A DNA stretch of 48,745 bases. It comes from a virus. Below are positions 1 to 48,745 of this stretch, one piece after another. Below the pieces are notes generated by a model. The model did not search any database. It saw only the letters and a program-made list of their open reading frames with translations, and was not told the origin of the DNA. A program made the position numbers and the translations under genes. The stretch is from IMG/VR virus record IMGVR_UViG_3300036046_000008. The stretch is one strand, 5' to 3'. Position 1 is the first letter of the stretch. Every line of letters begins with the position of its first letter.

Positions 1-127
1 AGATTGACTACCGCCCCAAAAGCATCCACAGCGTATCTGGGGACTTCGGGGATCCTTCGAAAACCGGTCAACGAACCTCCTCGATCGGATGGAAATTAAC
101 GGTTTTGTAGGGTCGGGAAAAAGGGTC
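1..127. repeat. Window-end duplication: identical to 48619..48745 (terminal redundancy or circular-closure overlap)
   Basis: Direct reading: first 127 nt match last 127 nt exactly; repeat is truncated by the window edge so true length unknown. Confidence 0.9.
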
Positions 128-796: not shown

Positions 797-833
797 TAGG
801 GGGTCTCATTATATGCCCTGCAATTTTCGCGCG
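797..833 (-). promoter_or_regulatory. Conserved promoter-like element copy (TATAATGAGACCCCCTAC core)
   Basis: Minus strand reads CGCGCGAAAATTGCAGGGCATATAATGAGACCCCCTAC; abuts the tRNA 3' end and precedes gene 509..778. Confidence 0.6.
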
Positions 834-906
834 TGGGCCCCGTGGGACTCGAACCCACACCTTACGGATTAAAAGTCCGCTACTCTGCCAATTGAGCTAG
901 AGGCCC
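834..906 (-). tRNA. tRNA-Lys (anticodon UUU)
   Basis: Manual cloverleaf fold: 7-bp acceptor stem GGGCCTC/GGGGCCC, D-loop AATTGGCA, anticodon loop CTTTTAA, T-loop TTCGAGT, discriminator A; no encoded CCA. Confidence 0.85.
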
Positions 907-913
907 AAACCCC

Positions 914-2062
914 TTACAAATATGCCGAGCGACTAGACTCGTTGAAAGAACGCTTTCGCCGAAGCGCTTCGCGAATTGCCCGATCCAGAGGCGCCGCACT
1001 CATCAACGTGTAGTAATATAACTTCTCATGCTGTGAGTCAAGACGATCGATTCGTCCTTGCGCTTGCTTATACATGCGATACGAATAAGTAAGCGAATAA
1101 AAGCACATAGCGTTAGTCTCAGTGCAATTCCATCCTTCGGCCCCGGCCAGATACTGCACCAAATATACCCAGGAATCTGAGGTCGGGATGTCTTCATGAC
1201 GATGCCCGTTCCATTCCGCAACTGCTACATCTTCGGCAAGCTCCCGCAGGATCGCAAGCTCATAGTCAAAGTTGTAGAATATAACTAAACGGGGATGTTT
1301 TTCCAGCAAAGCCCTCACCGCAAGGAACCTTGTCTCGTCCGTATTCAAGACCTTTCTTGCTACGTAGAAGGTGTTGGAGATAGTCTCGATCGGTGCCTCT
1401 TTGAAGACGTCCCAACGATCCCGCCACACCTGAATATACTTCTCACGGTCGTATTGCACAGGTGTTTCAACGAACTCTCGGTCAAGATGCGATCGGTAAG
1501 TCATCCCCACAAGAATCTGCGCACGCAGCTTGTACAGTTTGGTAAGACCAACGTAGCGATCGACTTTAGGGAACTTGGTAAAAGTATTGTACACGGCATG
1601 TTGCCGGGTGAAATCCGTCTTGTTCTTGTAGAACCCATTTGCGATAAAGACCGGAACGTAATCCATCCATGTGTCGCCCGGCGTTGCCGACAACAAAATC
1701 CAAGGGTTGTCTTTGACGACCTTCAGAAACGCCTTGACCCAGGCCCCATACCCAACCAGTCGCTGTTCGTCCGCAATGAGAAATATACCCTCAGCATCCG
1801 TATATTTCGCCAAGTTCTGCCAACTGTCGACGGTCAACTCCGTTACTCCTACCAAAGCCGCCTCTCGTTCCCAGTCACCGCTGTCCCGCTTCTTCGCAGT
1901 GGTGATGACAAGCAGCTTACGGTCACTGTGGTTCCGCTGGTAATATACCAGAGCGGTCAACGTCTTGCCCGAACCCACAGGACCATACAGAATCTTGCCC
2001 GTCGACAACTTCGCGAGAGCCTCCTCCTGATGCGGATATAGCTTCACGTGTCCGAGGTCCAT
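914..2062 (-). CDS. ATP-dependent helicase (SF2-like)
   Basis: Track ORF 382 aa; Walker A GPVGSGKT, Walker B-like LIADEQ, helicase motif VI-like QGRIDR; start overlaps upstream gene by 19 nt. Confidence 0.6.
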   Translation of the reverse strand: MDLGHVKLYPHQEEALAKLSTGKILYGPVGSGKTLTALVYYQRNHSDRKLLVITTAKKRDSGDWEREAALVGVTELTVDSWQNLAKYTDAEGIFLIADEQRLVGYGAWVKAFLKVVKDNPWILLSATPGDTWMDYVPVFIANGFYKNKTDFTRQHAVYNTFTKFPKVDRYVGLTKLYKLRAQILVGMTYRSHLDREFVETPVQYDREKYIQVWRDRWDVFKEAPIETISNTFYVARKVLNTDETRFLAVRALLEKHPRLVIFYNFDYELAILRELAEDVAVAEWNGHRHEDIPTSDSWVYLVQYLAGAEGWNCTETNAMCFYSLTYSYRMYKQAQGRIDRLDSQHEKLYYYTLMSAAPLDRAIREALRRKRSFNESSRSAYL

Positions 2063-2355
2063 GCAAGATTGGACGCGTTGTTGTAGAACGTATCCCCGTC
2101 CAGATGCGCGACAAGCCCGCCCGGCTCAAAACCAGGAACGAACGCCTTTGCGACGAGGCGGTGCACTACGCGCCAGGTGCGCCCGTCTGCATTGGTCAGT
2201 TGTACGGTCAAATAGGACGTCGTCGTGGCCCCTTCCTGCAACTTGAGCAAAGCGTATGGGACTAGCCTCTTCTTTTGAATATCGTAGACGCGCCCCCAGT
2301 CGCTCACAAGGTAGTTGGGGAATTCGGGGATCGCCAACCACTGCTCGAGATCCAT
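2044..2355 (-). CDS. HNH homing endonuclease (NUMOD4-like N-terminus)
   Basis: 103 aa; IPEFPNYLVSDWGRV N-terminal motif and C-terminal HLDGD...NN..NL HNH-like motif; paralog of 48153..48689; RBS GAAAGGAAG. Confidence 0.6.
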   Translation of the reverse strand: MDLEQWLAIPEFPNYLVSDWGRVYDIQKKRLVPYALLKLQEGATTTSYLTVQLTNADGRTWRVVHRLVAKAFVPGFEPGGLVAHLDGDTFYNNASNLAWTSDT

Positions 2356-2369
2356 CGCACTTCCTTTCA

Positions 2370-2396
2370 GTAGGGGGTCTGATTATATGCTCGCAA
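2370..2396 (-). promoter_or_regulatory. Conserved promoter-like element, partial copy
   Basis: Minus strand TTGCGAGCATATAATCAGACCCCCTAC then GAAAGGAAG and ATG of 2044..2355. Confidence 0.5.
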
Positions 2397-2423
2397 GGCC
2401 GGCGGACAAAACTGTACCCCCAT

Positions 2424-2460
2424 GTAGGGGGTCTCATTATACAACATGTGATTCCCGCGA
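2424..2460 (-). promoter_or_regulatory. Conserved promoter-like element copy
   Basis: Minus strand TCGCGGGAATCACATGTTGTATAATGAGACCCCCTAC; overlaps stop codon of 2437..2895. Confidence 0.55.
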
Positions 2461-2895
2461 GACCGGCCAATAATATGGTAGATCCGCTGGCACCCCCGGC
2501 CACATCAGACTGTATCGACCTGGATCCTTCCGGATGAGATTGCTCTGATGCGAGCGATGAAATTCTTTGATCCCGTGCCACCACGGAACCTGGCGATCCG
2601 GGTATTCCTTTAGCATCTGTGTGAAATATGGCAGTAGAGAGTCTGCGTATCCACGGGTTCGCCAGACTCGGCAGGAGATCAGCCCATATGCGCAAAGCGA
2701 TCCCTCGTAGCCTTGCCACATGCGAGCTGCGGGATGCGTGCGCCACCCCTTAGTCTCCCCACGCAAAGCCTTGAGGATCTGCATCGTCTCGACCCGCTGC
2801 TTTCCAAGGCGTTTTTGGTCTAGACGTGTGAGTGATTCATAATAACCAATCTCAGGCAGAAAAGTGTTGACCATAAATATCTCCCTCCGAGGCAA
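2437..2895 (-). CDS. hypothetical protein
   Basis: Track ORF 152 aa; no motif recognised. Confidence 0.5.
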   Translation of the reverse strand: MPRREIFMVNTFLPEIGYYESLTRLDQKRLGKQRVETMQILKALRGETKGWRTHPAARMWQGYEGSLCAYGLISCRVWRTRGYADSLLPYFTQMLKEYPDRQVPWWHGIKEFHRSHQSNLIRKDPGRYSLMWPGVPADLPYYWPVSRESHVV

Positions 2896-2927
2896 AACTA
2901 AAACCCCTTGTGAGAGTTTTAGTTTTT
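2893..2927 (-). terminator. Terminator-like hairpin (conserved-loop family)
   Basis: Plus AAACTAAAAC-CCCTTGTGAGA-GTTTTAGTTT; between stop of 2938..3195 and start of 2437..2895. Confidence 0.45.
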
Positions 2928-2937
2928 GGCGTCGGCG

Positions 2938-3195
2938 CTACGGCTGCTTACCGTCTACCGCACGTTGGATAGCTCGAGCAATACGTAGAACTCGCATGTC
3001 ATCGTCCATCCAAGCTGCAGAGCTGTCCAAACCAAGTTCGCTAATTAACTCGACTTGCCCGCGCAAATACTCACGACGCATCAGTTGGTCAGCCGTGTGG
3101 TTCAAGGCACAATGCTCGTGCAGACAGATGTCTGTTAGGTCAACACCATCCCATGCACGAGCCGCTGCGTTGACTGCGTCTTGATACGAAACCAT
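2938..3195 (-). CDS. hypothetical protein
   Basis: Track ORF 2938..3303 trimmed to internal ATG with GGAG RBS, because upstream 36 codons overlap 3222..3434. Confidence 0.4.
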   Translation of the reverse strand: MVSYQDAVNAAARAWDGVDLTDICLHEHCALNHTADQLMRREYLRGQVELISELGLDSSAAWMDDDMRVLRIARAIQRAVDGKQP

Positions 3196-3221
3196 AGAAG
3201 TCTCCAAATATAGGTCGGTGA

Positions 3222-3434
3222 TTAGTGGCGAAAAATGGGGTCCAGAGAGAGGAGAACGAATTTGTGCCCTCTGGGTGTGACGTTGGTTCGAATTCCATCC
3301 CAAATAGTGCCTTTAGGCAGGGACAGCGCTCTTTCTGCTTCAGTCACGCTTGCGTAGAGAGTGTTGGTCGTCTTGTCATAGACCATACTCTTAACGCGCC
3401 TGTCAGTCGGATACGGGACGCGGTTTGATCTCAT
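3222..3434 (-). CDS. hypothetical protein
   Basis: Track ORF 70 aa; strong RBS GGAGGA before ATG. Confidence 0.5.
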   Translation of the reverse strand: MRSNRVPYPTDRRVKSMVYDKTTNTLYASVTEAERALSLPKGTIWDGIRTNVTPRGHKFVLLSLDPIFRH

Positions 3435-3447
3435 TAGGTCCTCCGAT

Positions 3448-3480
3448 TTCGTTACACAAGAAGGGGGTTGGTTTTATTCT
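3448..3480 (-). promoter_or_regulatory. Degenerate copy of promoter-like element
   Basis: Minus strand CGCGCAAAACAGAATAAAACCAACCCCCTTC upstream of 3222..3434; weaker match. Confidence 0.3.
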
Positions 3481-3683
3481 GTTTTGCGCGGAGCTGAATT
3501 TGTTTTAACAGGGCCCGGACGATAGCAAATTAAGACGACAACTGATCGAAGTTTGAGCAAATAACCGATACGACGCGTTCCGTCCCAAACCACGCCCGAA
3601 TACAGGTGAGGGTTGTTTGTTTGATAAATATCAATCGTCCGCCCCAAGAGATTTATGTACACCCAATTACGCTGTTTCCGCAT
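3474..3683 (-). CDS. hypothetical protein
   Basis: Track ORF 69 aa; AAGGAGA RBS. Confidence 0.35.
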   Translation of the reverse strand: MRKQRNWVYINLLGRTIDIYQTNNPHLYSGVVWDGTRRIGYLLKLRSVVVLICYRPGPVKTNSAPRKTE

Positions 3684-3948
3684 CTCCAGTCTCCTTAAGA
3701 ACGTCGATTTGATACCAGCGCCCTACCGAGAAGTCATACTTGGGAAACGCAATTGTCCGCGCGTCTTGCGTGCGCATTACAACGTGCATTGGTAGAATAT
3801 ACTCGATCACACCCTGATAGAGCTCGATACTTCCCTGATGCGGCTCGGGACCATCGGGCAGCCAGAGAGTGACTTGCAAGACTGTATTGTTCTTGGCCCA
3901 AATCGCGATTTGCTTATCCATGTCCACGGCGCTTCGGTCAAAGCTCAT
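3667..3948 (-). CDS. hypothetical protein
   Basis: Track ORF 3667..4005 trimmed to ATG at 3948 directly after upstream stop. Confidence 0.45.
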   Translation of the reverse strand: MSFDRSAVDMDKQIAIWAKNNTVLQVTLWLPDGPEPHQGSIELYQGVIEYILPMHVVMRTQDARTIAFPKYDFSVGRWYQIDVLKETGDAETA

Positions 3949-3949
3949 T

Positions 3950-4174
3950 TCAGATTCCCTCCGGTAACGAGATCTCTTCGGGCGTGATGATAACGAGACC
4001 GCCAATTATGCGATCCTTCGTATGGGGGCCAATTCGCAAAAAGTTCTGTTCCTCTTGCGTCAACAAGATATAGCGCAACCACGGGTTATTATCGCGCGCG
4101 GCTATCATCTTGGCGTAGATGGCGCGTCCTAACAATCTGTCAAGAATGATTCGTGTCGGGTCCGATGATTCCAC
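3950..4174 (-). CDS. hypothetical protein
   Basis: Track ORF 74 aa; GTG start with AGGTGAAG RBS. Confidence 0.45.
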   Translation of the reverse strand: MESSDPTRIILDRLLGRAIYAKMIAARDNNPWLRYILLTQEEQNFLRIGPHTKDRIIGGLVIITPEEISLPEGI

Positions 4175-4186
4175 GTCTTCACCTGT

Positions 4187-4438
4187 CTAGTTAAATTTGG
4201 GACGGATTTTACTTTGCTGGTCGGACAAATATCCGCGGTCGTTCGGTTTCTTGCCCGACGGTGTCACACGCACCCATTCGCCTCGGGCGATCATCTTCTC
4301 TTCGTCCTCGGTTGCTGGCCGACGTTTGATCACGGGACCGGCTGCGGTTCCAGCTCCGCCTTTTGTTCCGGGCCGACCTGTGAAAACGACTTCGGGTGTT
4401 CGCCGATTCTTGTACCAGATCAAATCGTGGGTGGACAC
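4187..4438 (-). CDS. hypothetical basic protein
   Basis: Track ORF 83 aa; GTG start 5 nt after GGTAGGAGG RBS; preferred over overlapping Arg-rich frame 4209..4490. Confidence 0.5.
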   Translation of the reverse strand: MSTHDLIWYKNRRTPEVVFTGRPGTKGGAGTAAGPVIKRRPATEDEEKMIARGEWVRVTPSGKKPNDRGYLSDQQSKIRPKFN

Positions 4439-4657
4439 AGCGCCTCCTACCGGATAATCGTGAATATAACCAGGATCCAGACCAAGACAATGAACGTGAT
4501 GACTAGCACGAATAGCAGGTCTTCCACATTTTGCTCTTTTCGCCGCAGGGGTTCCGGGCGCCTGTTGGTCGTTTAAGAGCCGCAGCTAGGTGCGAAACTT
4601 CTTCTGCGGATCCCCGACGAAAAATATAGACCATTGTTCAACGACTAAACAGTCGTT

Positions 4658-4690
4658 GTGGTCTCATTATAGACGATGTAAAATTCGCGA
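4658..4690 (-). promoter_or_regulatory. Conserved promoter-like element copy
   Basis: Minus strand TCGCGAATTTTACATCGTCTATAATGAGACCAC; adjacent perfect 8-bp hairpin at about 4638..4657; no ORF of 60 aa or more downstream. Confidence 0.5.
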
Positions 4691-4692
4691 GG

Positions 4693-4938
4693 CTAGCGCA
4701 TCTTTCTTACCGCCCGTCGAAACGCAACATACCGTTCCTCATGCTTTTCGCTCCACGTCCGTCGAACCGCAGACACGACTACCACGCCAACTCGGGTATA
4801 GCTTCGGGCAGCCCACTCGCAATTTTCCCATTCCGTCTGCCATGTCCGGCGCCATATCGGTTTTTCCCGTTGCACGCGGTAAATAGTAAGATCGGACAAG
4901 TCAACAAGATTACGCCAGAATCGTTTAACCCACATCAA
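4693..4938 (-). CDS. hypothetical protein
   Basis: Track ORF 81 aa; start overlaps upstream stop. Confidence 0.4.
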   Translation of the reverse strand: MMWVKRFWRNLVDLSDLTIYRVQREKPIWRRTWQTEWENCEWAARSYTRVGVVVVSAVRRTWSEKHEERYVAFRRAVRKMR

Positions 4939-5141
4939 CGACTGCGCCCCTGCAAAGTTAGGGCTTCTTGGCGGCCGGCCTCAATAGCGCGTTGGAACCA
5001 GACGGTTAGAGTTTTGTGGTCGGGGACACTCCCCTGAATGCGATCGCCAAAAACCGCGAGAAAATGAGTAGCCCAGTCGCTTGGGTCAGTGTTGAACTCA
5101 TCCATCATCGCCCACATTTTGCTTAGGTGCGACTCGCACAT
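4935..5141 (-). CDS. hypothetical protein (start uncertain)
   Basis: Track ORF 4935..5228 trimmed to first internal ATG; no clear RBS. Confidence 0.3.
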   Translation of the reverse strand: MCESHLSKMWAMMDEFNTDPSDWATHFLAVFGDRIQGSVPDHKTLTVWFQRAIEAGRQEALTLQGRSR

Positions 5142-5310
5142 AATGCTTGTTTGGAACGGCCCAGGTAACGCCGGCCGCAACGCCAAAAGCCACCACAGCT
5201 TGCAGGATCTCACTCCATAGCAGTCCATCGTCGACCAGCGGCACCAGATATGCGATGGCAGCGAACAAGCCCGATAGAAGGGCTTTTCTCGACTCGAGCA
5301 CCAAGTCCAT
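5098..5310 (-). CDS. hypothetical membrane protein
   Basis: Track ORF 5098..5328 starts at TTG; ATG at 5310 has AAAGGAG RBS; hydrophobic segments. Confidence 0.4.
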   Translation of the reverse strand: MDLVLESRKALLSGLFAAIAYLVPLVDDGLLWSEILQAVVAFGVAAGVTWAVPNKHYVRVAPKQNVGDDG

Positions 5311-5404
5311 GACTAATCTCCTTTGCAAGTAGAATATAGGGCGCTCTGTTGAGTCGTTTAAGATGAGCGGTACCGGCGCCGCTCCATCCCCTATCTTTCC
5401 TGTC

Positions 5405-5743
5405 TCAGCTAGTGTGACTGAAGACCTTGACTTCAGGCTCCGGATTGATGAGAACGAGCTCCTCGCCCAGATCAGTCACCGGCTCGAAGTTGCTCTCGAA
5501 TGCGCGAGTGGTATACACCTTGAAGCCTCGTCCCGCGTAGAGAACCCAGTCCCCAGCAAACGCTCGAGTCTGCCCCGTCGACAAGGGGCGCTGCACGTTC
5601 ACCTTGACGAACGGCGTCCTCGATGCGGTGTAACGCACCTCGCCATCGCACCAATCGGCGACATCCTCCAGGTTGTCCTCGGTGACCTGAACGGCCTCGA
5701 CCTCGAACGGCTTACGCTTGTACAGCTCCGGGCTGACACCCAT
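5405..5743 (-). CDS. hypothetical protein
   Basis: Track ORF 112 aa; strong RBS AGGAGA. Confidence 0.65.
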   Translation of the reverse strand: MGVSPELYKRKPFEVEAVQVTEDNLEDVADWCDGEVRYTASRTPFVKVNVQRPLSTGQTRAFAGDWVLYAGRGFKVYTTRAFESNFEPVTDLGEELVLINPEPEVKVFSHTS

Positions 5744-5764
5744 TTGACTTTCTCCTCTTGTGAG

Positions 5765-6043
5765 TCAACGATAATAGACGCCGGCAACGACGACGCCTTT
5801 CCAACGCACTGGCCCAGCGTGCACCTTAGTGGACCAGCTTTTACATTGTGCGAGAACAGGGCAATCGTAGCAGATGTTCTGGGCCTGCCTTACAAGACCC
5901 TGGCGCGCCCAGTTACCTCTGCCGTCAAATATAAACGAGTCTGGAAACTGCGCGCACAACGCATCTCCCATCCATTCATACTTTTTTACAACTTCGAACA
6001 AAGGGCTATATACGTCGCTGTCAAACACTAGCCTCATCCCCAT
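5765..6043 (-). CDS. WhiB-like (Wbl) Fe-S transcription regulator
   Basis: Four-Cys pattern C-x27-C-x2-C-x5-C (DALCAQ ... ICYDCPVLAQC), size typical of Wbl; ATG second codon of track ORF. Confidence 0.55.
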   Translation of the reverse strand: MGMRLVFDSDVYSPLFEVVKKYEWMGDALCAQFPDSFIFDGRGNWARQGLVRQAQNICYDCPVLAQCKSWSTKVHAGPVRWKGVVVAGVYYR

Positions 6044-6509
6044 CAAACTCTGCGTACTTCAGAGCCAATGGGTCTTCGATAATAGTCACGTAGAGCGACT
6101 GCAAATATGCCTTGATTCCGCTTTTACCCTGGACTTTCCATTCATACGGACGGACAATAAGATCGCAGCTCTTAATATCGACCCAATCCAGCATCTCCAC
6201 ATCTGCCTCGGAGAGACGCGTCTGTCCACGAGACGTGATCTGGATGACGGTAGGGGGCCGGCCTTTGAAATTAACCGCGACTGGCAGCCACGGCTGATCA
6301 AGATCGCCTTCCTCTCTTGCCCGCAGGTATTTAATGTTGTAGCCGCAGTCCTCAAGGTGGTCTGCTTCAGACTGCGACGGAATCAGAACGCCGAAGTTTC
6401 GATCTCCTTCTCGATTATACATCCCCTCCTTCCCTGAGAAGTTGCGGAAAATAAGCCGCACATCTTGCATCACAACAGTTGGCTCGCAAGCGCGAAGCTC
6501 ACTACCCAT
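6021..6509 (-). CDS. hypothetical protein
   Basis: Track ORF 162 aa; ATG with AGGAGG RBS. Confidence 0.6.
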   Translation of the reverse strand: MGSELRACEPTVVMQDVRLIFRNFSGKEGMYNREGDRNFGVLIPSQSEADHLEDCGYNIKYLRAREEGDLDQPWLPVAVNFKGRPPTVIQITSRGQTRLSEADVEMLDWVDIKSCDLIVRPYEWKVQGKSGIKAYLQSLYVTIIEDPLALKYAEFDGDEASV

Positions 6510-6523
6510 CTATTCCTCCTGCG

Positions 6524-9500
6524 TTAGCTAACGAACGCTTCGAACGAGCCGAAACGTTCAATGGTGTCTACGGCGTCTTCGACCAGAGCTTGATAGAACG
6601 ATTTATCGATGTTCTGCCATTCCGATGGACCCAATTCCTTAACGACGGCGGCCTCCTTCCAGAAATATCCCTTTGTCCCAGACAGCGCGTACTTGCGCCC
6701 GTCTTTGACTCGGTAAAGCGTACCGCCGCCTGTGCCTTCGCGGACCGGAACGAAGCTTCCAGACCGTCCGACAAAGTGCATACGCTCGTCGCCGAAATCG
6801 ATGTAGATGGCGCCATTGGTTACCGAACGGACTTCGCACAAGTCTTGGAGGTGGATCTCGTCATGCGTGAACAAAGTTCGATAGACATATGGGTGTTGGA
6901 ATTGAGCGCCGACAGCGTCCCATTTGTCGCCTTCTCGGGCGATGTAAACGGCGTCGTTGACAAGACAGAATTTCTCGTATGTCTTCTCGTGGTCGAACGT
7001 GTACCCGTATCGCTCGCCAAATTCGGTTACAAACTGAATAATATCGGGCGTGGCATTAGGGATCTTGACTGAGTCCGTCTTAATATGCACTACCGGGAAG
7101 CCTTGTTCCTGGATGGCATGCTTGAGATCAATCATGAACAAAGCGCCACGCTTCGCGACGATGTTGTCTTTATTTCGAGGATCGCGGAACACCGTATCAA
7201 ATTTGGCACTGGTTAGGCCATAGACAATATTGATGACGATCTTCAACGCATGAGACAAGTCTTTGGCGGACTGGGTATCAGCGTCTGAGATAAAAGAAGC
7301 TAATTTTCCATCTAGCATCTGCGCCGCAGCAGAATAATCGCCTTTCTTAATGGCGAGCCGCGCGTCGAGCAGATCGTTAAAGTTCTTTGTATAAGGCCCG
7401 AACAAATTTAGAAGGCGAATAGACGTCGGGTGCATCGAGGCAACGTCAAGAACCGCAACATTCTCGTACATCCCTGGTTCAGCGTATACGTACCCGCCTT
7501 CACTAGGATCCTCGCCACGGTAAGAGCTTTTGCCGCCCTCGAAAATATAACCCGGAAACAACTCGCTGAGATCTGTATAGACGAATGAGCCTTGAGGAGA
7601 GGGGTCTCCCTCAAATACGATTCGCGCCGTGTGCTTCTGCGTAGTGTCGTTGACGCTGAGCCCGCTGATCGAAGCGAGAATCTGTCTCGCGACAAAGTCC
7701 TGGGCCCTGGACTCCGCGACTTTCTCCGTTGCAACGACATCGTTGGCGCAATAGTCGGCAACTTCGATCCAACGCTCCTCTGGCACCGGCTCGTCCCACG
7801 GGTGGTCGAGCTCTTTGTGGACGATGCCGAGCTCGATCTGGAACTTCTTCAGTCCTTGCTTCTTGGACGAGTAGTCGTACACATCGGCGTAAGATAGCCC
7901 ATACGCCTCGCCGAAGGTGGCGTTGCGGTTCTTGTCCACAATCAAAGCTTGACTGAGTCTATACAAACGCTCATTGTCGTAACCCAAGAACGCAGCGTAC
8001 AAAATATGGTTGTCATAGCGTCTGTTGTTGAACCCCACGAGCTTTTGAGCAAGAAGAGGTTCGATGTCATCGGGCTTCGGATTGATCATCCGCACAACAG
8101 GGTGATCGCCCTCAAACTTCCAACACAACACGAACAGGTTAGGGTACACCTCAACGTCGAAATATACGAGCGCGTCGCCTTCTCCGGAGATAGAGACTGT
8201 ACGATCCTCCGACTTAAACTTCATCTCCCTGACAAGCCGCAGACATTCCAACGGTCGGTTCGTGCTGTTGTTGGCGAAAGCCACGATCGAGGACCGCAGA
8301 TCTGTGACATCATAGCTCAAGTCAGAAGAATATGCGTCATCCAAGACCTTCTTGATGAAGTCGATTGACGACTTCGTGTTAGGATGAATCTCCTTTCTCA
8401 AATTTCGAGCAATCATCTCTCGAAGCCCGCGCTCAGATTTGATCTGTTTGACATCGATCATCTTTCTCTCCTTCATAGGCAACCCGCTTGTGATTTGCGC
8501 AACTTCATGGTCGTTGCATCGCGACAGCCTACGGCGAAGAGACGAGTCCCCGAGCAAAGTTTTAATCTCAATGCCCGGAGAGTACTCGTTATCTAGTTCT
8601 TTGATGTCGCCGTTGTAAATATAATGCAGATGCAGCCCTTTCCCGCTCATACTCAACTCAGTATAGGTTGGCGGCCACGCACTAGCAGCTTCAAGATTCT
8701 TATCGAGGGACTTCTCTCCACTTTCATCGCGCAAATCGAAATCGATCACAATATGATTCTTAGGAATCTTGACGTAATGCACCAGCGAAGTGTCCAGATC
8801 GGTCAGGGTGGTCTTGACTAAGCCCCAACGCTTACTAGGCTTACCTGTTTCTGTGGCGTACTGAGCCGGCATGTCTGCCAAAATATCGTCAAGCAACGAT
8901 CGGCGTTGAGCCAGATTGATTGAGAACGATTTAGGCGACGACGGAGCGACCCCAGTCAACTTCTCCAGCTTGAAGTCTTTGAACAAGCTGTACACCTCCT
9001 GACCGTCGACCATCGTTCTCTCTACGAAATTCTCGTAGTAATTCATCATCTCGTTACGAAATATCTGCATCTGCATCGGTTTGTTGTTTGACTCGGTGCA
9101 GAATTCCTTATACAAAGCATAGGCCCTTTTAAGGGTAATCCCGTCCGGCGCTTTCAACTCGGGCAAATATGCTTCGACGAAGTTGTAGAACACGTTGGTT
9201 GAATACATCATCTTCGTGGGGCGGTAGTTGTCATAATAATTCTTGCCCATGCTTTGATACACTCGAAGACAGTGCGATGCAATAGCGCCGAGTTCAAATT
9301 CGATCCTCGACATCAACACTTGATAATGATCAAACGTGTGCAAATTTCCGGTTGGTTGGACATCGATCAGTCGCCGCAATAAACCAGACCGAGAGTCACT
9401 AATCTTGACGGGGTTGTTAGTGCCCATAAACAGAAACGTGTTGATGCGTACATTATACTGAGATTTATACTTCTCGTTGATCACCATATTCTCATGAGAG

Positions 9501-10225
9501 ACCAACGAATTCAACCTGGTGTTGTCCTCAATCCGGGACAAATCGCCATCGTGTTGGATTCCCACCAACGGGTTCTCTTTGAAGACCTCCAAGGCAAAAG
9601 AGGTCCCGTTGGACCCGAGCGCCTTCGCGTCAAAGACGTTCGTATAGCCGGAGAATAGACGCTCAATAATATGAAGGACTGTGGATTTACCGGTCTTCGC
9701 GGAGCCATAAAGCACAATAAACTTCTGAATGTCGACAGAGTCTCCCGCCACAACGGAGCCGATTGCCCACTCAATCTTAGCGAGCTCCTCCTCAGAATAT
9801 AGCTTTCCAACCAGTTCGTCCCATGCGTCGTGTGCACCATCCTCTAGGGCGTAGTCAAGACGATGGCTGATGTAGTCGGTCTTCTTGACTTTCGTATTGG
9901 AGAACGCCAGGAACTGGTTCAACTGATGATAATTGTTCTCGTTGTTCCGCACATAGCGCAAAAATGCGTCATGCGACCCGGTAGAGTGCTCTTCCATCCA
10001 GCGAATATAAGGCTGATCAAACTCCGCGGCGACTCGGCGGAGCTCTGCATCGACAAGCTCAACCACCCTGTAAATATCCGTCGACCAGAGCCCCGCTTCC
10101 TCGTCCCAGATGGCATAAAACTTCCCGCCGCGCGTCATCAAGTCTCGCGACTTACGACTGAGGAATTCAGGGTAGACTTCGGTCTTCTTTCCGTTCTTTC
10201 GAACCTTTGCCTTGAAGAAGTCCAC
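6524..10225 (-). CDS. Multidomain replicase: P-loop (SF3-helicase-like) + primase-polymerase (AEP-like) + family B DNA polymerase with 3'-5' exonuclease
   Basis: 1233 aa; Walker A GSAKTGKST and LFMGTNNP; AEP-like VIDFDLRD and SGKGLHLHY; exo motifs FDVEV, GFNNRRYD, YCAND; pol motifs DVASMHPT, KIVINIVYG, KTDS; GTG start with GAAGGAGGGAG RBS. Confidence 0.7.
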   Translation of the reverse strand: MDFFKAKVRKNGKKTEVYPEFLSRKSRDLMTRGGKFYAIWDEEAGLWSTDIYRVVELVDAELRRVAAEFDQPYIRWMEEHSTGSHDAFLRYVRNNENNYHQLNQFLAFSNTKVKKTDYISHRLDYALEDGAHDAWDELVGKLYSEEELAKIEWAIGSVVAGDSVDIQKFIVLYGSAKTGKSTVLHIIERLFSGYTNVFDAKALGSNGTSFALEVFKENPLVGIQHDGDLSRIEDNTRLNSLVSHENMVINEKYKSQYNVRINTFLFMGTNNPVKISDSRSGLLRRLIDVQPTGNLHTFDHYQVLMSRIEFELGAIASHCLRVYQSMGKNYYDNYRPTKMMYSTNVFYNFVEAYLPELKAPDGITLKRAYALYKEFCTESNNKPMQMQIFRNEMMNYYENFVERTMVDGQEVYSLFKDFKLEKLTGVAPSSPKSFSINLAQRRSLLDDILADMPAQYATETGKPSKRWGLVKTTLTDLDTSLVHYVKIPKNHIVIDFDLRDESGEKSLDKNLEAASAWPPTYTELSMSGKGLHLHYIYNGDIKELDNEYSPGIEIKTLLGDSSLRRRLSRCNDHEVAQITSGLPMKERKMIDVKQIKSERGLREMIARNLRKEIHPNTKSSIDFIKKVLDDAYSSDLSYDVTDLRSSIVAFANNSTNRPLECLRLVREMKFKSEDRTVSISGEGDALVYFDVEVYPNLFVLCWKFEGDHPVVRMINPKPDDIEPLLAQKLVGFNNRRYDNHILYAAFLGYDNERLYRLSQALIVDKNRNATFGEAYGLSYADVYDYSSKKQGLKKFQIELGIVHKELDHPWDEPVPEERWIEVADYCANDVVATEKVAESRAQDFVARQILASISGLSVNDTTQKHTARIVFEGDPSPQGSFVYTDLSELFPGYIFEGGKSSYRGEDPSEGGYVYAEPGMYENVAVLDVASMHPTSIRLLNLFGPYTKNFNDLLDARLAIKKGDYSAAAQMLDGKLASFISDADTQSAKDLSHALKIVINIVYGLTSAKFDTVFRDPRNKDNIVAKRGALFMIDLKHAIQEQGFPVVHIKTDSVKIPNATPDIIQFVTEFGERYGYTFDHEKTYEKFCLVNDAVYIAREGDKWDAVGAQFQHPYVYRTLFTHDEIHLQDLCEVRSVTNGAIYIDFGDERMHFVGRSGSFVPVREGTGGGTLYRVKDGRKYALSGTKGYFWKEAAVVKELGPSEWQNIDKSFYQALVEDAVDTIERFGSFEAFVS

Positions 10226-10228
10226 CGG

Positions 10229-10774
10229 CTAAACTCCCTCCTTCTCGATGACGTAAGCATTCATCTGATACCAGATTTCTGTATTTCGTTGGTCTCGGGG
10301 CGGATGCATCAGTGGAAACAACCCTCCCGATCCATTGTAATCGTAGGTTCGCCAAATAAACCGATCCAGAATCTCGTCGATCTCCCTTTCTACGGCAGGG
10401 TTACGACTATAATCCCGATCGGAACACGGCGGAAACGACAAATTACGGAGAAAAAGCCAAAAATGGTTACGCGGATCTCCCCCGGCGAGAAAAGCAAAGC
10501 GGCGTGTAAGCGCCACTAGCATCTCAAGGACGGAGCATTTTTGGCCAGGCCAGAACAAATCGGCTTCGGAAATATCATGTGTGTCCAAGAATTCTTCGCG
10601 CAGCACTCGTCCGTCTTCTAGACGGTTATCATCGTTGGGGATAAACCAGATAAACTCCTTGAGATAAAGCTGATTAAACAGACGATGACACGTGCGATTG
10701 GGATTCTTGACGCGCGACGACAGAATGAGCTCATAGAGCCACTCCAAATATCGATCGTCAAGGTATTGGCTCAC
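10229..10774 (-). CDS. hypothetical protein
   Basis: Track ORF 181 aa; ATGA-type overlap with upstream gene. Confidence 0.6.
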   Translation of the reverse strand: MSQYLDDRYLEWLYELILSSRVKNPNRTCHRLFNQLYLKEFIWFIPNDDNRLEDGRVLREEFLDTHDISEADLFWPGQKCSVLEMLVALTRRFAFLAGGDPRNHFWLFLRNLSFPPCSDRDYSRNPAVEREIDEILDRFIWRTYDYNGSGGLFPLMHPPRDQRNTEIWYQMNAYVIEKEGV

Positions 10775-11550
10775 CCATCATCACTCCGAAACTTTCGGAC
10801 TTTCCGGAAGGCGCGTGCTGCATCGTGCTGCAGACTATCTTCCTCGTCATACCCCAGAACGTTCTTCTCCCACGAGCCGTAGTCGATAGTGATCAGAACG
10901 TCTAGGCGAAGCTGGTCGTTACGAATATAGACACAAACATTGTCGTCCGAATACTCGTCGAAACGACTGAGATCGGCGTATTCCCCAATTGTGCGCTCAG
11001 GCAACGAGACGACGGTATCTGTCTCATCGACTAGAGCTCCGTCTTCTTCGTAATAGGTCCACTCGACCTGAGCATTGCTGGGTTCGTTGTAGCGAAACTC
11101 TTCTTCTGTGATCAAATATGGAGTGCGGCCCGGCTCTGGGCGTTCGTCCGATACCGGATGATAAGACGCTTCTTGCAGTTTTTCGAGTGGGATCGGATCG
11201 TCCTTATTGGGGCCGTCGGCGTTAGAACGCTCCGGCACTGTATAGAGTCGGGCGTAATCTGTATAGACTGCGTAATCGGTGTCGACCTCTCCCAGCGGTG
11301 CCGGCTTGGCGTTCTCCTCGCCGTTTGGGGCCGGCACGACCTCGTATTCCTCTCGCTTATACAGAGTTTTGTAATATAGCTGGGCTCGTTTCACCTCCTT
11401 TTGCAGAATATCCTCAGAGCGCTCTGCCATAGCTTGCCGCACGAGAATTCCGCCCACGGTTGCTCCGACGCCGAGCCCCAACGCGTAGAAGCCAAACGGG
11501 GACGTTACCCTATGAGCAAGCATCGCCCGAATCAGGTTCATAGAATTCAC
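10771..11550 (-). CDS. hypothetical membrane-anchored protein
   Basis: 259 aa; N-terminal hydrophobic helix then acidic domain. Confidence 0.55.
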   Translation of the reverse strand: MNSMNLIRAMLAHRVTSPFGFYALGLGVGATVGGILVRQAMAERSEDILQKEVKRAQLYYKTLYKREEYEVVPAPNGEENAKPAPLGEVDTDYAVYTDYARLYTVPERSNADGPNKDDPIPLEKLQEASYHPVSDERPEPGRTPYLITEEEFRYNEPSNAQVEWTYYEEDGALVDETDTVVSLPERTIGEYADLSRFDEYSDDNVCVYIRNDQLRLDVLITIDYGSWEKNVLGYDEEDSLQHDAARAFRKVRKFRSDDG

Positions 11551-12500
11551 ACCTCTCGAAAGTTAACTCGGTCGACAATGACGCCATCCACGTTAAAATC
11601 GAGAAACACGGACAGCTCGCGCCCGTTTACAAAATCCCGCAAACGCGGATCATCTCCGTGCAGGAACCCGAAGTCAATATAGTTGTCTCCGGTTCCGTCC
11701 TCGTTGATGCGCCAGCCAACAACCTGCCCAGCTTTGGACCGTTCCATTCCGAGCATGTCGTAGACCTCGTTCAGGAACACATGTCCCTTTGCCTTAAGCA
11801 AATCGTTCGCATAGTTCTGCTGAGCGCGCAGGAACAGATAGTTGGCGTGCGGCACGTCCTGCCAATGCTGGTTGTACTCGTCAAAGAAACGAGCATACGG
11901 CGAATATGCGGTCTCTCCGATACGCTTACGCTCAACTACCTCTTTCGAACCTGTGTCTTTGTTCTCGATCGCCACGCGCTCAGAATATGCGTCGTAACGC
12001 AGGTCACGCTCAACTTCCTCACCGAATTCCTGCCGAACCCGATCGCGATACAGCTTGAACGCCCGGTCCAGTCCATTGTATGCCACCGTCAGGGCAGCCA
12101 CACGAGTGTTGAGGATGAAGTGCGCACGAGCAAACGCGGCGACGGTCAGGGTGCCCACCAAGATTGTGGGGGCGTACAGCCGACCCACGTCAACAAAGGT
12201 CCGCGTGTAAATATAGATGCGATCCCGCAGTGCATCTTCCTCCGTATAGTGATGCTTGGCCACCATCTCGGAGTCTTGCTCGACAGTGCGCACGTTCTGC
12301 AGGTCCTGCTGCGTCTTCTGCAGAACCTCATCGACGCGGAGAGTCGCCCGCGACGCCAGAACGGTGGTTGCCGCAAATCCTACCACGCCCGCACCGAACA
12401 GAATATGAGGCGAGTTAACCTTGCCCGCCAAGACCAGCCGCCCCATCTTTTGGGAGACGGCTGGTGACATGGCTTTTCTAATAAGTTGCAACTTGTTCAT
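11547..12500 (-). CDS. membrane protein, paralog of 15329..16117
   Basis: Track ORF trimmed to ATG at 12500 with GAAAGGA RBS; shares N-terminal TM pattern and C-terminal blocks with 15329..16117. Confidence 0.55.
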   Translation of the reverse strand: MNKLQLIRKAMSPAVSQKMGRLVLAGKVNSPHILFGAGVVGFAATTVLASRATLRVDEVLQKTQQDLQNVRTVEQDSEMVAKHHYTEEDALRDRIYIYTRTFVDVGRLYAPTILVGTLTVAAFARAHFILNTRVAALTVAYNGLDRAFKLYRDRVRQEFGEEVERDLRYDAYSERVAIENKDTGSKEVVERKRIGETAYSPYARFFDEYNQHWQDVPHANYLFLRAQQNYANDLLKAKGHVFLNEVYDMLGMERSKAGQVVGWRINEDGTGDNYIDFGFLHGDDPRLRDFVNGRELSVFLDFNVDGVIVDRVNFREV

Positions 12501-12510
12501 CTTAGTCCTT

Positions 12511-13197
12511 TCAGTCCAGTGGTTCGGGTTGCGAGAGATCGAGCAAATATCCGGACGAGATCCGCCGGACTTTGGCGCCACTTAGATCGTACCAACCCCA
12601 ATTGGCGTCGGTGTACGCCGGAGTCAGATCCAGCAGGTTGTAGAGATCTGAGACGGACACGTGCTGATAGCGATCGAGCAGATCATACATCCGATCCAGG
12701 ACTTCGTGCGCCTCGGCCCGTGTTGTTAGAACCACCTCTTCAAAATTGTGGCTAGTACGGGCTCTCCGACTCAACTCTCGGCGAGGCTGTCTGTCGTCCG
12801 GAAAAGGCGGACGCGTTCGGCTACCACGCCCGGCGTACTGCTCGTACTGAGTGTAAACTCGCGGTCGGCCACCACGCCCAGACCGAACTCTCGGATTGTA
12901 GTAGTGACTGTCCCCGAATAAGAGCCGCTCAATTCCGCCGCTCACCGCATCAGTGATCATGTCTTTCGCAGCGGGAATAAGCACGTCAAGAACCACATAC
13001 TGTCGAACGTTCTGCGCATCGGCCCCTAGGAACGTCTCACGGACTCGACTGCCAAGAGACCGTTTTCTACGAACCACACGGTTGACAACGACCTTCTCGA
13101 TCTTCTTGTCTTCAGCCGGCGGGGCGGGAGGAGGCGCCGGCTGCTGGAACGCTGTGCGCGTGTTTGGAGGAAACTCTTCCATAATATAACCTTCCAT
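12511..13197 (-). CDS. hypothetical protein
   Basis: Track ORF 228 aa; Pro-rich N-terminus. Confidence 0.5.
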   Translation of the reverse strand: MEGYIMEEFPPNTRTAFQQPAPPPAPPAEDKKIEKVVVNRVVRRKRSLGSRVRETFLGADAQNVRQYVVLDVLIPAAKDMITDAVSGGIERLLFGDSHYYNPRVRSGRGGRPRVYTQYEQYAGRGSRTRPPFPDDRQPRRELSRRARTSHNFEEVVLTTRAEAHEVLDRMYDLLDRYQHVSVSDLYNLLDLTPAYTDANWGWYDLSGAKVRRISSGYLLDLSQPEPLD

Positions 13198-15304: not shown

Positions 15305-15335
15305 AAATATAGGGGGTTTAAATGTTGTCTAACTC
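15305..15335 (-). promoter_or_regulatory. Degenerate copy of promoter-like element
   Basis: Minus strand CATTTAAACCCCCTATATTTAAAGGAGCA before ATG of 14913..15290. Confidence 0.3.
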
Positions 15336-16117
15336 ACACGGTTGTAGTGTCGTGTCGGACTCACCATAAAATCCATGACAATGCACGGCCGATCGTCGTC
15401 TGCCATGGTGGTAGAGAACCGCAACTCCAAGAGCAGGTCTGAATTCCAACCGATGTCGTCAGAGAACTTCGTTAGATCTAGACCAAGTTGATTGTACAGA
15501 TCGCTCAGAGACGCGTAGAAGTCGTTGATGATCTTCTTGTTAATGTAGTTTTCTGCTCTCCTCATTGCCTCCATATCACTGTAGAAATATCGCCCTGCGT
15601 AGAGGTCATAGCACAGCACTGTGCCTACACCTTGAATAATGGGTTGATTGCGAACAGGGTTATCACGTACCCGATCTTGCGCAATCTCGTCTCTCAGTGC
15701 CCGTTCTTTACTTGAGCCCAGCTGCTCGGTAACCTTGTGCTTATACTCGGTGAACGCGCGCTCTGTCAGAGAATATGCAGCGACCATGGCGGCTGTCCGA
15801 CGATTACTGACATATACGGCGGCGATCAGGCACGCGCAAGAGACTACACCACTTGCTACCGCGGGAATATAAAGACGCCACGTCAACGAGACGATGTCTT
15901 CTTGAGCCAACGGTTCGGCAACGACATAGTTCTGAGCTGCGTCGTCTGCCCGCCGGTCTTTCTCCTCCTCGAGAATATAGGCGGCTCGAAAACCGGCTTG
16001 TGACGCAAGCACCGTCGTTGTAACAACCCCGGCAAGCCCTACAGTTGCAAGTAATGTAGGCGCATTGTCGACGAGAAACTTTTGCGACATCCGCATCACA
16101 TCAGTCAACATCGTCAC
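15329..16117 (-). CDS. membrane protein, paralog of 11547..12500 (start uncertain)
   Basis: Track ORF 262 aa; shared TM and C-terminal blocks with 11547..12500. Confidence 0.55.
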   Translation of the reverse strand: MTMLTDVMRMSQKFLVDNAPTLLATVGLAGVVTTTVLASQAGFRAAYILEEEKDRRADDAAQNYVVAEPLAQEDIVSLTWRLYIPAVASGVVSCACLIAAVYVSNRRTAAMVAAYSLTERAFTEYKHKVTEQLGSSKERALRDEIAQDRVRDNPVRNQPIIQGVGTVLCYDLYAGRYFYSDMEAMRRAENYINKKIINDFYASLSDLYNQLGLDLTKFSDDIGWNSDLLLELRFSTTMADDDRPCIVMDFMVSPTRHYNRVS

Positions 16118-47235: not shown

Positions 47236-47796
47236 TCAGGATCGGGCTTCTTCCTTAATGGATTCGATGCGCTTGTCAAAAGTGATAATCCGATCCATGA
47301 CGTGAAAGATAACGTCAGCATCAGGATGGTGTACACGCACCTCATTGTTCTGGTAGATCCGCAGCTCAGTTTCAAAGTCTACGGGGTTCATCTTATATTC
47401 AAGGCAGAAGAGGCCCACGTAAATCTCGAGTTGATGATACGAGGCGGGAACCGTCCCAGTCTTCAAATCATGGACACGAAGGACATTACGTCGAAAAGAA
47501 ATACAGTCCGCGTGCCCAAACGCATTATCCGAGTAATATAGTGGTTGCTCAGGCGTCATGCGGTAGCCGATTCCGTCGTTCACGTAACTGTTCAATGAAC
47601 CGGAAGTATCCGGAAGTCTAACGCCGAGACGGATCGCTTGATGCGCAAAACTATGCAACTCTGTTCCACGTTTCGCAGCTTGCGAAGCCAAGAACGCCCG
47701 GTCAAGTTTCTCGTCCGAGTAGTTTAACCAGTGGTACCGGCTCGGACTTAAAAACGCATGCTGATCCCTAATGCGTGAATGCATATTGAAGATCAT
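47236..47796 (-). CDS. PD-(D/E)xK nuclease (RecB/Cas4/YqaJ-like)
   Basis: 186 aa; GHADCISF ... VHDLKTG ... YHQLEIY motif order. Confidence 0.45.
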   Translation of the reverse strand: MIFNMHSRIRDQHAFLSPSRYHWLNYSDEKLDRAFLASQAAKRGTELHSFAHQAIRLGVRLPDTSGSLNSYVNDGIGYRMTPEQPLYYSDNAFGHADCISFRRNVLRVHDLKTGTVPASYHQLEIYVGLFCLEYKMNPVDFETELRIYQNNEVRVHHPDADVIFHVMDRIITFDKRIESIKEEARS

Positions 47797-48152: not shown

Positions 48153-48689
48153 TTATATGCTTTTTTGGTCAGATCGCGCGAAGAACGCAAAACGGTAAGA
48201 AGTTGGGAACGCCGGCTCGCCTTCTTGAATAGACGCAAAAAGATCATGAAGGAGGATCCCGTAGAACATGCACGTGATCCAAGCGTTCCCCACAACCTCG
48301 TTCGTGTCCAAGTTGATCACTTGTTTACGTCGCACCCACGAATATGGCCAGAACGTATATAGACCAAGACGATGACCTTGATGGTGGTACTTCATCGCGA
48401 ACCATCGAGGGCGCCAAGACAAATTATCGACATGCGAGTTCGATAGGTCGTAATCGTGATGTATGACACTATCAAAGTATTCGGACGGCGGGGGATCTAA
48501 GAAAGCGCGTGCCACAAGAAACGCAACCGGGCAAATGCGTCGCTCACCGTTGACATACAAACCCACATAGTAACGACCCTGTTGGTTTGAGCAAGGACGG
48601 AGCAGTCGATCTGTGTCGAGATTGACTACCGCCCCAAAAGCATCCACAGCGTATCTGGGGACTTCGGGGATCCTTCGAAAACCGGTCAA
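48153..48689 (-). CDS. HNH homing endonuclease (NUMOD4-like N-terminus)
   Basis: 178 aa; IPEVPRYAVDAFGAVVN and HHDYDLSNSHVDNL; TTG start after GAGGAGG RBS; 5' end lies inside the terminal duplication. Confidence 0.6.
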   Translation of the reverse strand: MTGFRRIPEVPRYAVDAFGAVVNLDTDRLLRPCSNQQGRYYVGLYVNGERRICPVAFLVARAFLDPPPSEYFDSVIHHDYDLSNSHVDNLSWRPRWFAMKYHHQGHRLGLYTFWPYSWVRRKQVINLDTNEVVGNAWITCMFYGILLHDLFASIQEGEPAFPTSYRFAFFARSDQKSI

Positions 48690-48745
48690 CGAACCTCCTC
48701 GATCGGATGGAAATTAACGGTTTTGTAGGGTCGGGAAAAAGGGTC

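Follow-up and report, generated by a model that had tools for sequence, protein, structure and literature searches.

The window analysed here is the whole of the virus record IMGVR_UViG_3300036046_000008 (48,745 nucleotides of DNA), and the subject of this study is one gene on its minus strand, for which an earlier note, made from the letters alone, had proposed a single-chain replicase combining P-loop, primase-polymerase-like and family B polymerase motifs. The gene is a single unbroken open reading frame (ORF) encoding a protein of 1233 amino acids (aa), as that note had said, and all ten motifs that it quoted were located in the protein at the residues listed in Table 1. The GTG start codon is preceded, a few bases upstream, by GAAGGAGGGAG, a strong Shine-Dalgarno-like ribosome-binding site, and since an in-frame TAG stands one codon before the GTG, no earlier start is possible. 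In a BLASTP alignment, residue 1 lies opposite residue 1 of GP55 of Lactococcus phage 1706 (MDFFKA and MDFYKT, respectively). We infer that an open frame of 1233 codons at ~52% G+C lies far beyond chance, and the full-length conservation across thousands of proteins described below indicates that the ORF is a real gene. On this one ORF, the domain matches follow in the order superfamily 3 (SF3) helicase, AEP primase, alpha-helix domain (aHD) and family B DNA polymerase (PolB), the last with both exonuclease and polymerase parts.

Table 1. Features of the replicase gene and its neighbours. Nucleotide positions are those of the window, residues those of the replicase; pLDDT, predicted local distance difference test; SF2, superfamily 2; ssDNA, single-stranded DNA.
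Feature	Nucleotides	Strand	Residues	Remarks
Replicase gene, whole (HelPrimPolB, GP55-like)	6524..10225	-		GTG start, 1233 aa and TAA stop; phrog_4210, GP55 alignment
N-terminal beta/alpha module	9896..10225	-	~1-110	model pLDDT >90; strands 4-48, then helices
D5-like SF3 helicase	8966..9895	-	~111-420	Walker A G174-T182 (K180); Walker B D226/D228
Further SF3 helicase motifs			T269-N270; R284/R285	motif C; Arg finger
AEP (PriS-like/PrimPol-like) primase domain	8471..8875	-	~451-585	motifs, GP55 alignment, primase profiles
AEP motif I			D495-F-D497
AEP motif II			S527-G-K-G-L-H532-L-H534
AEP motif III			E553	in GIEIK; probable
aHD	8228..8434	-	~598-666	four helices in model; Y638 and F650 within
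3'-5' proofreading exonuclease subdomain of PolB	7595..8179	-	~683-877	ExoI D690/E692; ExoII N733/D738; ExoIII Y825/D829
PolB polymerase subdomains	6527..7594	-	~878-1233	motif A D927; motif B K995..G1003; motif C K1049-T-D1051-S
GSAKTGKST			174-182	quoted earlier, found
LFMGTNNP			265-272	quoted earlier, found
VIDFDLRD			493-500	quoted earlier, found
SGKGLHLHY			527-535	quoted earlier, found
FDVEV			689-693	quoted earlier, found
GFNNRRYD			731-738	quoted earlier, found
YCAND			825-829	quoted earlier, found
DVASMHPT			927-934	quoted earlier, found
KIVINIVYG			995-1003	quoted earlier, found
KTDS			1049-1052	quoted earlier, found
Walker A, essential residue			K180	GP55 K189
AEP motif I, essential residues			D495/D497	GP55 D507/D509
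aHD, essential residues			Y638, F650	GP55 Y655, F667
ExoI, essential residues			D690/E692	GP55 D712/E714
PolB motif A, essential residue			D927	GP55 D949
Small conserved gene	5405..5743	-		phrog_35556; just downstream of ssDNA-binding protein gene
WhiB-like regulator gene	5765..6046	-		just downstream of ssDNA-binding protein gene
Phage ssDNA-binding protein gene	6021..6509	-		directly downstream of replicase; PF24083 Phage_ssDNA_bind 3e-58, phrog_4787
Conserved gene	10229..10774	-		directly upstream of replicase; phrog_4678 (1e-56)
SF2 helicase	914..2062			phrog_62; weak DEAD, ResIII and Helicase_C matches; 39% identity to phage 1706 orf67
Exonuclease	47236..47796			homologous to phage 1706 orf69

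The replicase aligned collinearly with GP55 over residues 1-1226 (BLASTP; 38% identity, 841 bits), and phrog_4210 ("DNA polymerase") spanned its residues 1-1232 against positions 1-1285 of a 1304-position profile (1842 bits). GP55 has been purified and assayed as a "four-in-one replicase" made up of an SF3 helicase, an AEP primase, an alpha-helix domain and a PolB with 3'-5' exonuclease (Zhang et al., Nucleic Acids Research 2025; PMC12205980). The enzyme has DNA polymerase and 3'-5' exonuclease activities, its helicase depends on UTP or dTTP, and it also displaces strands; it makes RNA primers of 2-22 nucleotides, preferring GTP at 5'-CCAAC-3', and can copy ssM13 de novo. The aHD, located between AEP and PolB, was reported as a new and essential domain, and the protein was mainly dimeric by size-exclusion chromatography with multi-angle light scattering (PMC12205980). 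All GP55 residues whose mutation abolished activity are matched in the window protein (Table 1). To follow residue conservation, we used a family alignment of 121 sequences, in which the mapped essential residues were invariant with the exception of Y638 (Tyr in 110 sequences, Phe in 11). The fusion was first noted by Kazlauskas et al. (2016; PMC4889955) as an extreme case of helicase-primase-polymerase coupling, and the group was later named HelPrimPolB and assigned to the EpsilonN-like clade of PolBs, with a divergent MotifC and KxY (Kazlauskas et al., 2020; PMC7544198); the AEP-families paper of Kazlauskas (2018) makes no mention of a helicase-primase-PolB fusion. We conclude that the gene very probably encodes a GP55-like four-in-one member of HelPrimPolB, the chief enzyme of genome replication in a siphovirus akin to the supercluster of actinobacteriophages and Lactococcus phage 1706.

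We next consider the protein domain by domain, using AlphaFold2 models of residues 1-680 and 560-1233 (mean pLDDT 85 each). The N-terminal module of ~110 residues, which had no family match of its own in the Pfam or PHROG searches, is conserved with GP55 starting at residue 1 and was counted within the helicase domain of GP55 by its authors (PMC12205980). In the domain that follows, primase-helicase PHROG families matched partially over residues 110-420, residues 111-402 matched the SaPI5 primase-helicase among PDB sequences, and a structure search with the 1-680 model found the fold to be like that of the SaPI5, vaccinia D5 and African swine fever virus (ASFV) helicases. Pfam DUF5906, the P-loop core of D5-like helicases, matched residues 172-279 well above its cut-off (47.5 vs. 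27.6 bits); Pox_D5 matched just below its own (21.0 vs. 21.4 bits), and the NCBIfam model for the C-terminal (helicase) part of P4-family primases matched below its curated cut-off. With DUF5906 and the fold in agreement, the earlier reading of this block as a P-loop/SF3 helicase was upheld. Walker A, Walker B, motif C (sensor 1) and the Arg finger are all present in the D5-type fold, and these catalytic motifs are invariant across the family alignment.

It is possible, though on the unlikely side, that the SF3 domain acts as a DNA-binding or strand-displacement aid, or as a polymerase loader, and that the bulk of unwinding falls to the SF2 helicase encoded at 914..2062 or to a host helicase. 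GP55 is mainly a dimer and not a hexamer, its unwinding requires millimolar UTP or dTTP as well as the polymerase domain (PMC12205980), and the SF2 enzyme (phrog_62) gives the window a second helicase, which its identity to phage 1706 orf67 marks as a conserved partner. Set against this are the invariance of the SF3 catalytic motifs across the family, the likeness of the fold to bona fide replicative D5-like helicases, and the behaviour of GP55 variants: K189A does not unwind, and deletion of the helicase domain markedly cuts strand displacement (PMC12205980). Given that GP55 is dimeric and unwinds only modestly, the leading helicase at the fork may be either the SF3 domain or the SF2 enzyme.

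The AEP primase-like motifs proposed earlier also held up, being conserved with GP55, where the D509A mutation kills the primase, and being accompanied by recurrent, sub-threshold matches to Prim-Pol and primase profiles. D495-F-D497, S527-G-x-G-x-H532-L-H534 and E553 are invariant in the family alignment, and AlphaFold2 modelled the region with a beta-rich core (pLDDT ~90). Primase/PrimPol PHROG families matched over ~466-558, and when an AEP-region profile was built from 22 sequences (residues 440-600), PHROG primase families were matched by 20-22 of the 22 members (best E-value 4e-6). Just beyond it, the aHD was modelled as helices at 598-609, 617-633, 641-652 and 658-666.

By our own tests, the primase region is the least well supported part of the protein, and several results weigh against the assignment to a GP55-like replicase. 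Pfam Prim-Pol (PF09250) matched 13 of the 22 members, always under the gathering score (16.8 vs. 22.8 bits); the 22-sequence profile retrieved nothing from the PDB sequences even at an E-value of 10; and hhalign against the catalytic domain of NrS-1 PrimPol (N300) aligned motif II only (TYTELSMSGKGLHLH vs. SYTEISPSGDGLHVV; 16 columns, 26% probability). In addition, the window protein is 84 residues shorter than GP55, mainly through lack of the C-terminal (thumb-side) insertion of the latter, and 62% of positions differ between the two; the activities named for it here are putative. In the Foldseek search with the 1-680 model, SF3 and AAA+ helicases filled the list and AEP entries were absent among the matches listed. 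The sub-threshold Prim-Pol matches and the empty PDB search, together with the lack of the PriL or helix-bundle domain that AEP primases typically carry, would fit a degenerate AEP-like region with a DNA-binding or structural role only, priming being left to host DnaG or some other mechanism. We consider such degeneration highly unlikely: the family shows no variation at the DxD, sGxGxH and acidic motif III residues, D509A in the homologous GP55 abolishes RNA primer synthesis (PMC12205980), and the aHD residues essential in GP55 are conserved in the window protein.

In the polymerase half, the exonuclease and PolB motifs recognised earlier were confirmed by profile, alignment and fold. The PolB family phrog_1252 matched residues 683-877 (1e-41), residues 907-1053 matched E. 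coli Pol II among PDB sequences (E-value 2e-7), and Foldseek matched the C-terminal model to the PolBs 9N, KOD, Tgo, Pol II and Pol alpha at 2e-15 to 1e-12; NCBIfam DNA polymerase II models were matched below their curated cut-offs. ExoI-III and MotifA/B are present in the PolB fold, and the motifs are invariant across the family, the exonuclease residues being invariant or nearly so in the 121 sequences. The canonical DTDS with its two Asp residues was not found. As had been noticed from the sequence, Lys takes the place of the first Asp: KTDS sits opposite DTDS in the E. coli Pol II alignment, the first Asp being replaced by K1049 and D1051 alone being kept. KTDS, K1049 included, occurs in 121/121 family sequences, among them GP55 (VVHVKTDSF), and the KxY position is likewise divergent (NDAVY in the window protein; NKAVI in GP55). 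The motif C Lys is a hallmark of the family and its normal state, compatible with efficient polymerisation. We rejected KTDS as a mark of an inactivated polymerase because GP55, an efficient proofreading polymerase, carries the same motif. Primer-independent PolBs (piPolBs) also lack the first motif C Asp, yet are active (PMC7544198).

The altered motif C could in principle reflect a PolB that is protein-primed (phi29-like) or primer-independent, and the authors of the GP55 study aligned its motifs with those of phi29 polymerase (PMC12205980). However, every one of the top 50 structural matches of the window protein is an RNA/DNA-primed PolB (archaeal B-family, Pol II, Pol alpha or ASFV), HelPrimPolB is placed in a clade of primed PolBs (PMC7544198), and de novo synthesis by GP55 requires nucleoside triphosphates (NTPs) and the AEP domain (PMC12205980); we therefore hold this explanation to be very remote. 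As a separate observation, 107 Enterococcus phage records matched the PolB part of the replicase only (~24% identity), and in the stand-alone PolB of one of these phages, SANTOR1 (locus 2207..4498), motif C reads NTDA, the first Asp being gone.

A long ORF of this kind might also be an artefact in which a frameshift or mis-assembly has joined a helicase-primase gene to a polymerase gene. All that speaks for this is that phages in general more often encode the primase-helicase and the PolB in separate genes (PMC4889955). Our searches of phage and protein collections gave it hardly any credence. By tblastn, the replicase was matched in 382 phage records, in 252 of which a single place covered at least 80% of the query, so that the same unbroken architecture recurs in one piece; the phages include those of Gordonia, Arthrobacter, Streptomyces, Rhodococcus, Curtobacterium and Lactococcus, plus human oral siphovirus contigs, and the usual annotation of the relatives is "DNA primase/polymerase". 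More than 8000 matches were obtained in a large protein database, and the best 120 of these were all 1215-1299 aa long, with 98-100% query coverage and 58-64% identity. An identical protein is present on an independent Logan assembly of SRR8857720, and the linker regions are conserved with GP55. On the 252 phage records, the best 120 proteins and the end-to-end GP55 alignment, all in one frame and at full length, we rejected the frameshift-fusion hypothesis; the earlier note had named a frameshifted fusion, or regions belonging to unrelated families, as what would speak against its reading, and neither was found.

The closest replicases from isolated phages are those of Gordonia Deejayvirinae phages (tblastn; 58.8% identity), and apart from the identical Logan protein, no protein among the best 120 of the more than 8000 matches exceeded 64% identity. 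Megablast of window positions 1-25000, which include the replicase, against the phage collection gave no match, indicating a phage whose DNA is new and whose relatives can be recognised through its proteins only. The domain order, compact size and motif C Lys had been described as unusual; these traits are present, but they are hallmarks of the HelPrimPolB/GP55 family, and it is their unusualness that does not stand. The protein is a new sequence with an already described architecture, its supposedly unusual traits having been known since 2016 and 2020 and verified biochemically in 2025, and it has no feature that distinguishes it from its ~60%-identical relatives.

Some observations on the annotation of homologues arose from the same searches. 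Streptomyces phages SendItCS and Scarif gave two-piece tblastn matches, and a split gene in SendItCS was considered on that basis and rejected: by annotation and direct comparison, its gene 55 (locus 4265..8200) is a full-length replicase. A separate 165-aa ORF of SendItCS, gene 51 (1486..1983), is likewise annotated "DNA primase/polymerase" and resembles the Walker A segment only (43% identity to replicase residues 129-191); this is a P-loop fragment or remnant standing on its own, and the gene is not split. In several Joint Genome Institute (JGI) entries, homologues of the replicase carry the label [quoted passage not shown], an error that stems from the P-loop.

A mechanism can be proposed by homology with GP55. 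The N-terminal D5-like SF3 NTPase (Walker A K180) would couple NTP use to DNA binding and unwinding and would support strand displacement, while the AEP domain (D495/D497, H532/H534), together with the four-helix aHD (Y638, F650), would make short RNA primers de novo on a single-stranded template. Primers would then be handed to the C-terminal PolB in cis, or in trans, plausibly between the subunits of an oligomer. PolB, with D927 (motif A) and D1051 (motif C) as its predicted catalytic residues, would extend them with 3'-5' proofreading (D690/E692, D738, D829). The adjoining ssDNA-binding protein probably completes a minimal replisome, to which the separate SF2 helicase and exonuclease encoded elsewhere in the genome may contribute.

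Because about 62% of the sequence differs from GP55 and the C-terminal insertion is missing, the actinophage-type clade might work unlike GP55. It might, for instance, have a hexameric helicase powered by ATP, or begin its primers at another site or with another nucleotide; the N-terminal module of ~110 residues could be an origin-recognition or loading domain; and the motif C Lys could have a catalytic or primer hand-off role and not be a neutral substitution. Taken jointly, an actinophage-type mechanism of this sort, with an N-terminal origin-recognition or loading module and a specific role for the Lys, seems to us decidedly unlikely. Within the preferred assignment to a GP55-like replicase, NTP preference, oligomeric state and primer site could still differ from GP55, since the insertion is absent here.

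The surroundings of the gene resemble those of its relatives (Table 1). The ssDNA-binding protein, a likely replisome partner, is 33% identical to phage 1706 orf66 and 57% identical to a gene product of Gordonia phage Gill, and the phrog_4678 gene on the other side is 40% identical to, and syntenic with, the gene just upstream of the replicase in Gill and SendItCS. With homologues of the ssDNA-binding protein, SF2 helicase and exonuclease all shared, the whole replication module is common to the window and phage 1706. Altogether ~20 proteins are common to the two, including TerL (59%), portal, protease/capsid and tail proteins besides the helicase, ssDNA-binding protein and exonuclease. All long ORFs of the window lie on the minus strand, and its ends overlap exactly by 127 bp (1..127 = 48619..48745), indicating a complete, circularly assembled genome of 48,618 unique bp; the usual source of an overlap this long is an assembler k-mer artefact, as opposed to a biological terminal repeat. 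The WhiB-like gene hints at an actinobacterial host, and the best matches are to Gordonia, Rhodococcus and Arthrobacter phages. This places it as an actinophage-like siphovirus of the actinophage and Lactococcus/Faecalibacterium supercluster (Koert et al., bioRxiv 10.1101/842583).

Elsewhere in the window, a single tRNA-Lys gene (anticodon TTT; 833..906, minus strand) lies just downstream of the SF2 helicase gene. Two paralogous phrog_2152 genes (11547..12581 and 15329..16117, both minus strand) lie upstream of the replicase, the former labelled DUF6353 on the Logan contig; homologues are located in the equivalent region of Gordonia phage Gill, of Streptomyces phage SendItCS and of phage 1706. 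An 893-aa protein (44540..47221, minus strand) gave an end-to-end match to phrog_4291, "RNA-dependent RNA polymerase" (1280 bits), and shares 37% identity with orf75 of phage 1706. Pfam RdRP matched it weakly at 505-608, it contains a GADFDGDT (DxDGD) motif as well as helix-turn-helix motifs at both ends, and its relatives in actinophage records are mostly annotated "helix-turn-helix DNA-binding protein". Homologues occurred in 250 phage records, spread over hosts in the same way as the replicase (252 records). Koert et al. proposed that proteins of this type are YonO/crAss-like two-barrel RNA polymerases and a signature of the supercluster (bioRxiv 10.1101/842583).

The main value of these results lies in annotation: the gene can be confidently labelled a HelPrimPolB (GP55-like) helicase-primase-polymerase, whereas its relatives are often recorded as "DNA primase/polymerase", "hypothetical protein" or, wrongly, "EcfA2 ATP-binding protein". 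A divergent, actinophage-type sequence is also added to a family with one biochemically studied member, a family of biotechnological interest in that a single polypeptide carries out de novo, proofread, strand-displacing DNA synthesis. The replicase opens no new question, and the invariance of the motif C Lys across the sampled members, together with the SANTOR1 PolB that lacks the first Asp, is a useful lead for work on why this Asp is dispensable in some PolBs.

Compared with known systems, the window protein stands closest in plan to GP55 and its actinophage relatives. It shares with GP55 the domain order (N-terminal module and SF3, AEP, aHD, exonuclease, PolB), the KTDS motif and the DFD and SGxGxHLHY motifs of AEP, and phage 1706 keeps similar genomic company, namely an ssDNA-binding protein, an SF2 helicase, an exonuclease and a YonO-like RNA polymerase. 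Differences are seen in Walker A (GSAKTGKS vs. GAKGTGKG in GP55), in motif A (DVASMHPT vs. DVESLHPH) and in the host lineage, probably actinobacterial here and Lactococcus for phage 1706. The HelPrimPolB members of actinophages, labelled "DNA primase/polymerase" in SEA-PHAGES genomes (gp62 of Gordonia phage Gill and gp072 of Rhodococcus phage ReqiPepy6, for example), are homologous over their full length at 49-59% identity, and have phrog_4210, the divergent MotifC/KxY and the same upstream and downstream neighbours. The stand-alone PolB of the Enterococcus Efquatrovirus SANTOR1 ("DNA polymerase B-like protein") is homologous to the PolB part (24% identity, E-value 7e-18), but has neither helicase nor AEP domains and carries Asn, not Lys, at the first position of motif C. 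In the D5-like primase-helicases (vaccinia D5/monkeypox virus E5, ASFV C962R, NrS-1 PrimPol and SaPI5 Pri-Rep), AEP is N-terminal to the helicase and no PolB is fused, and the primase comes first in 94% of primase-helicase fusions (PMC4889955). The window protein, in contrast, has the helicase first, an aHD instead of a PriL or helix-bundle partner, and a proofreading PolB appended; the helicase-before-primase order with an appended PolB is the very definition of the HelPrimPolB family.

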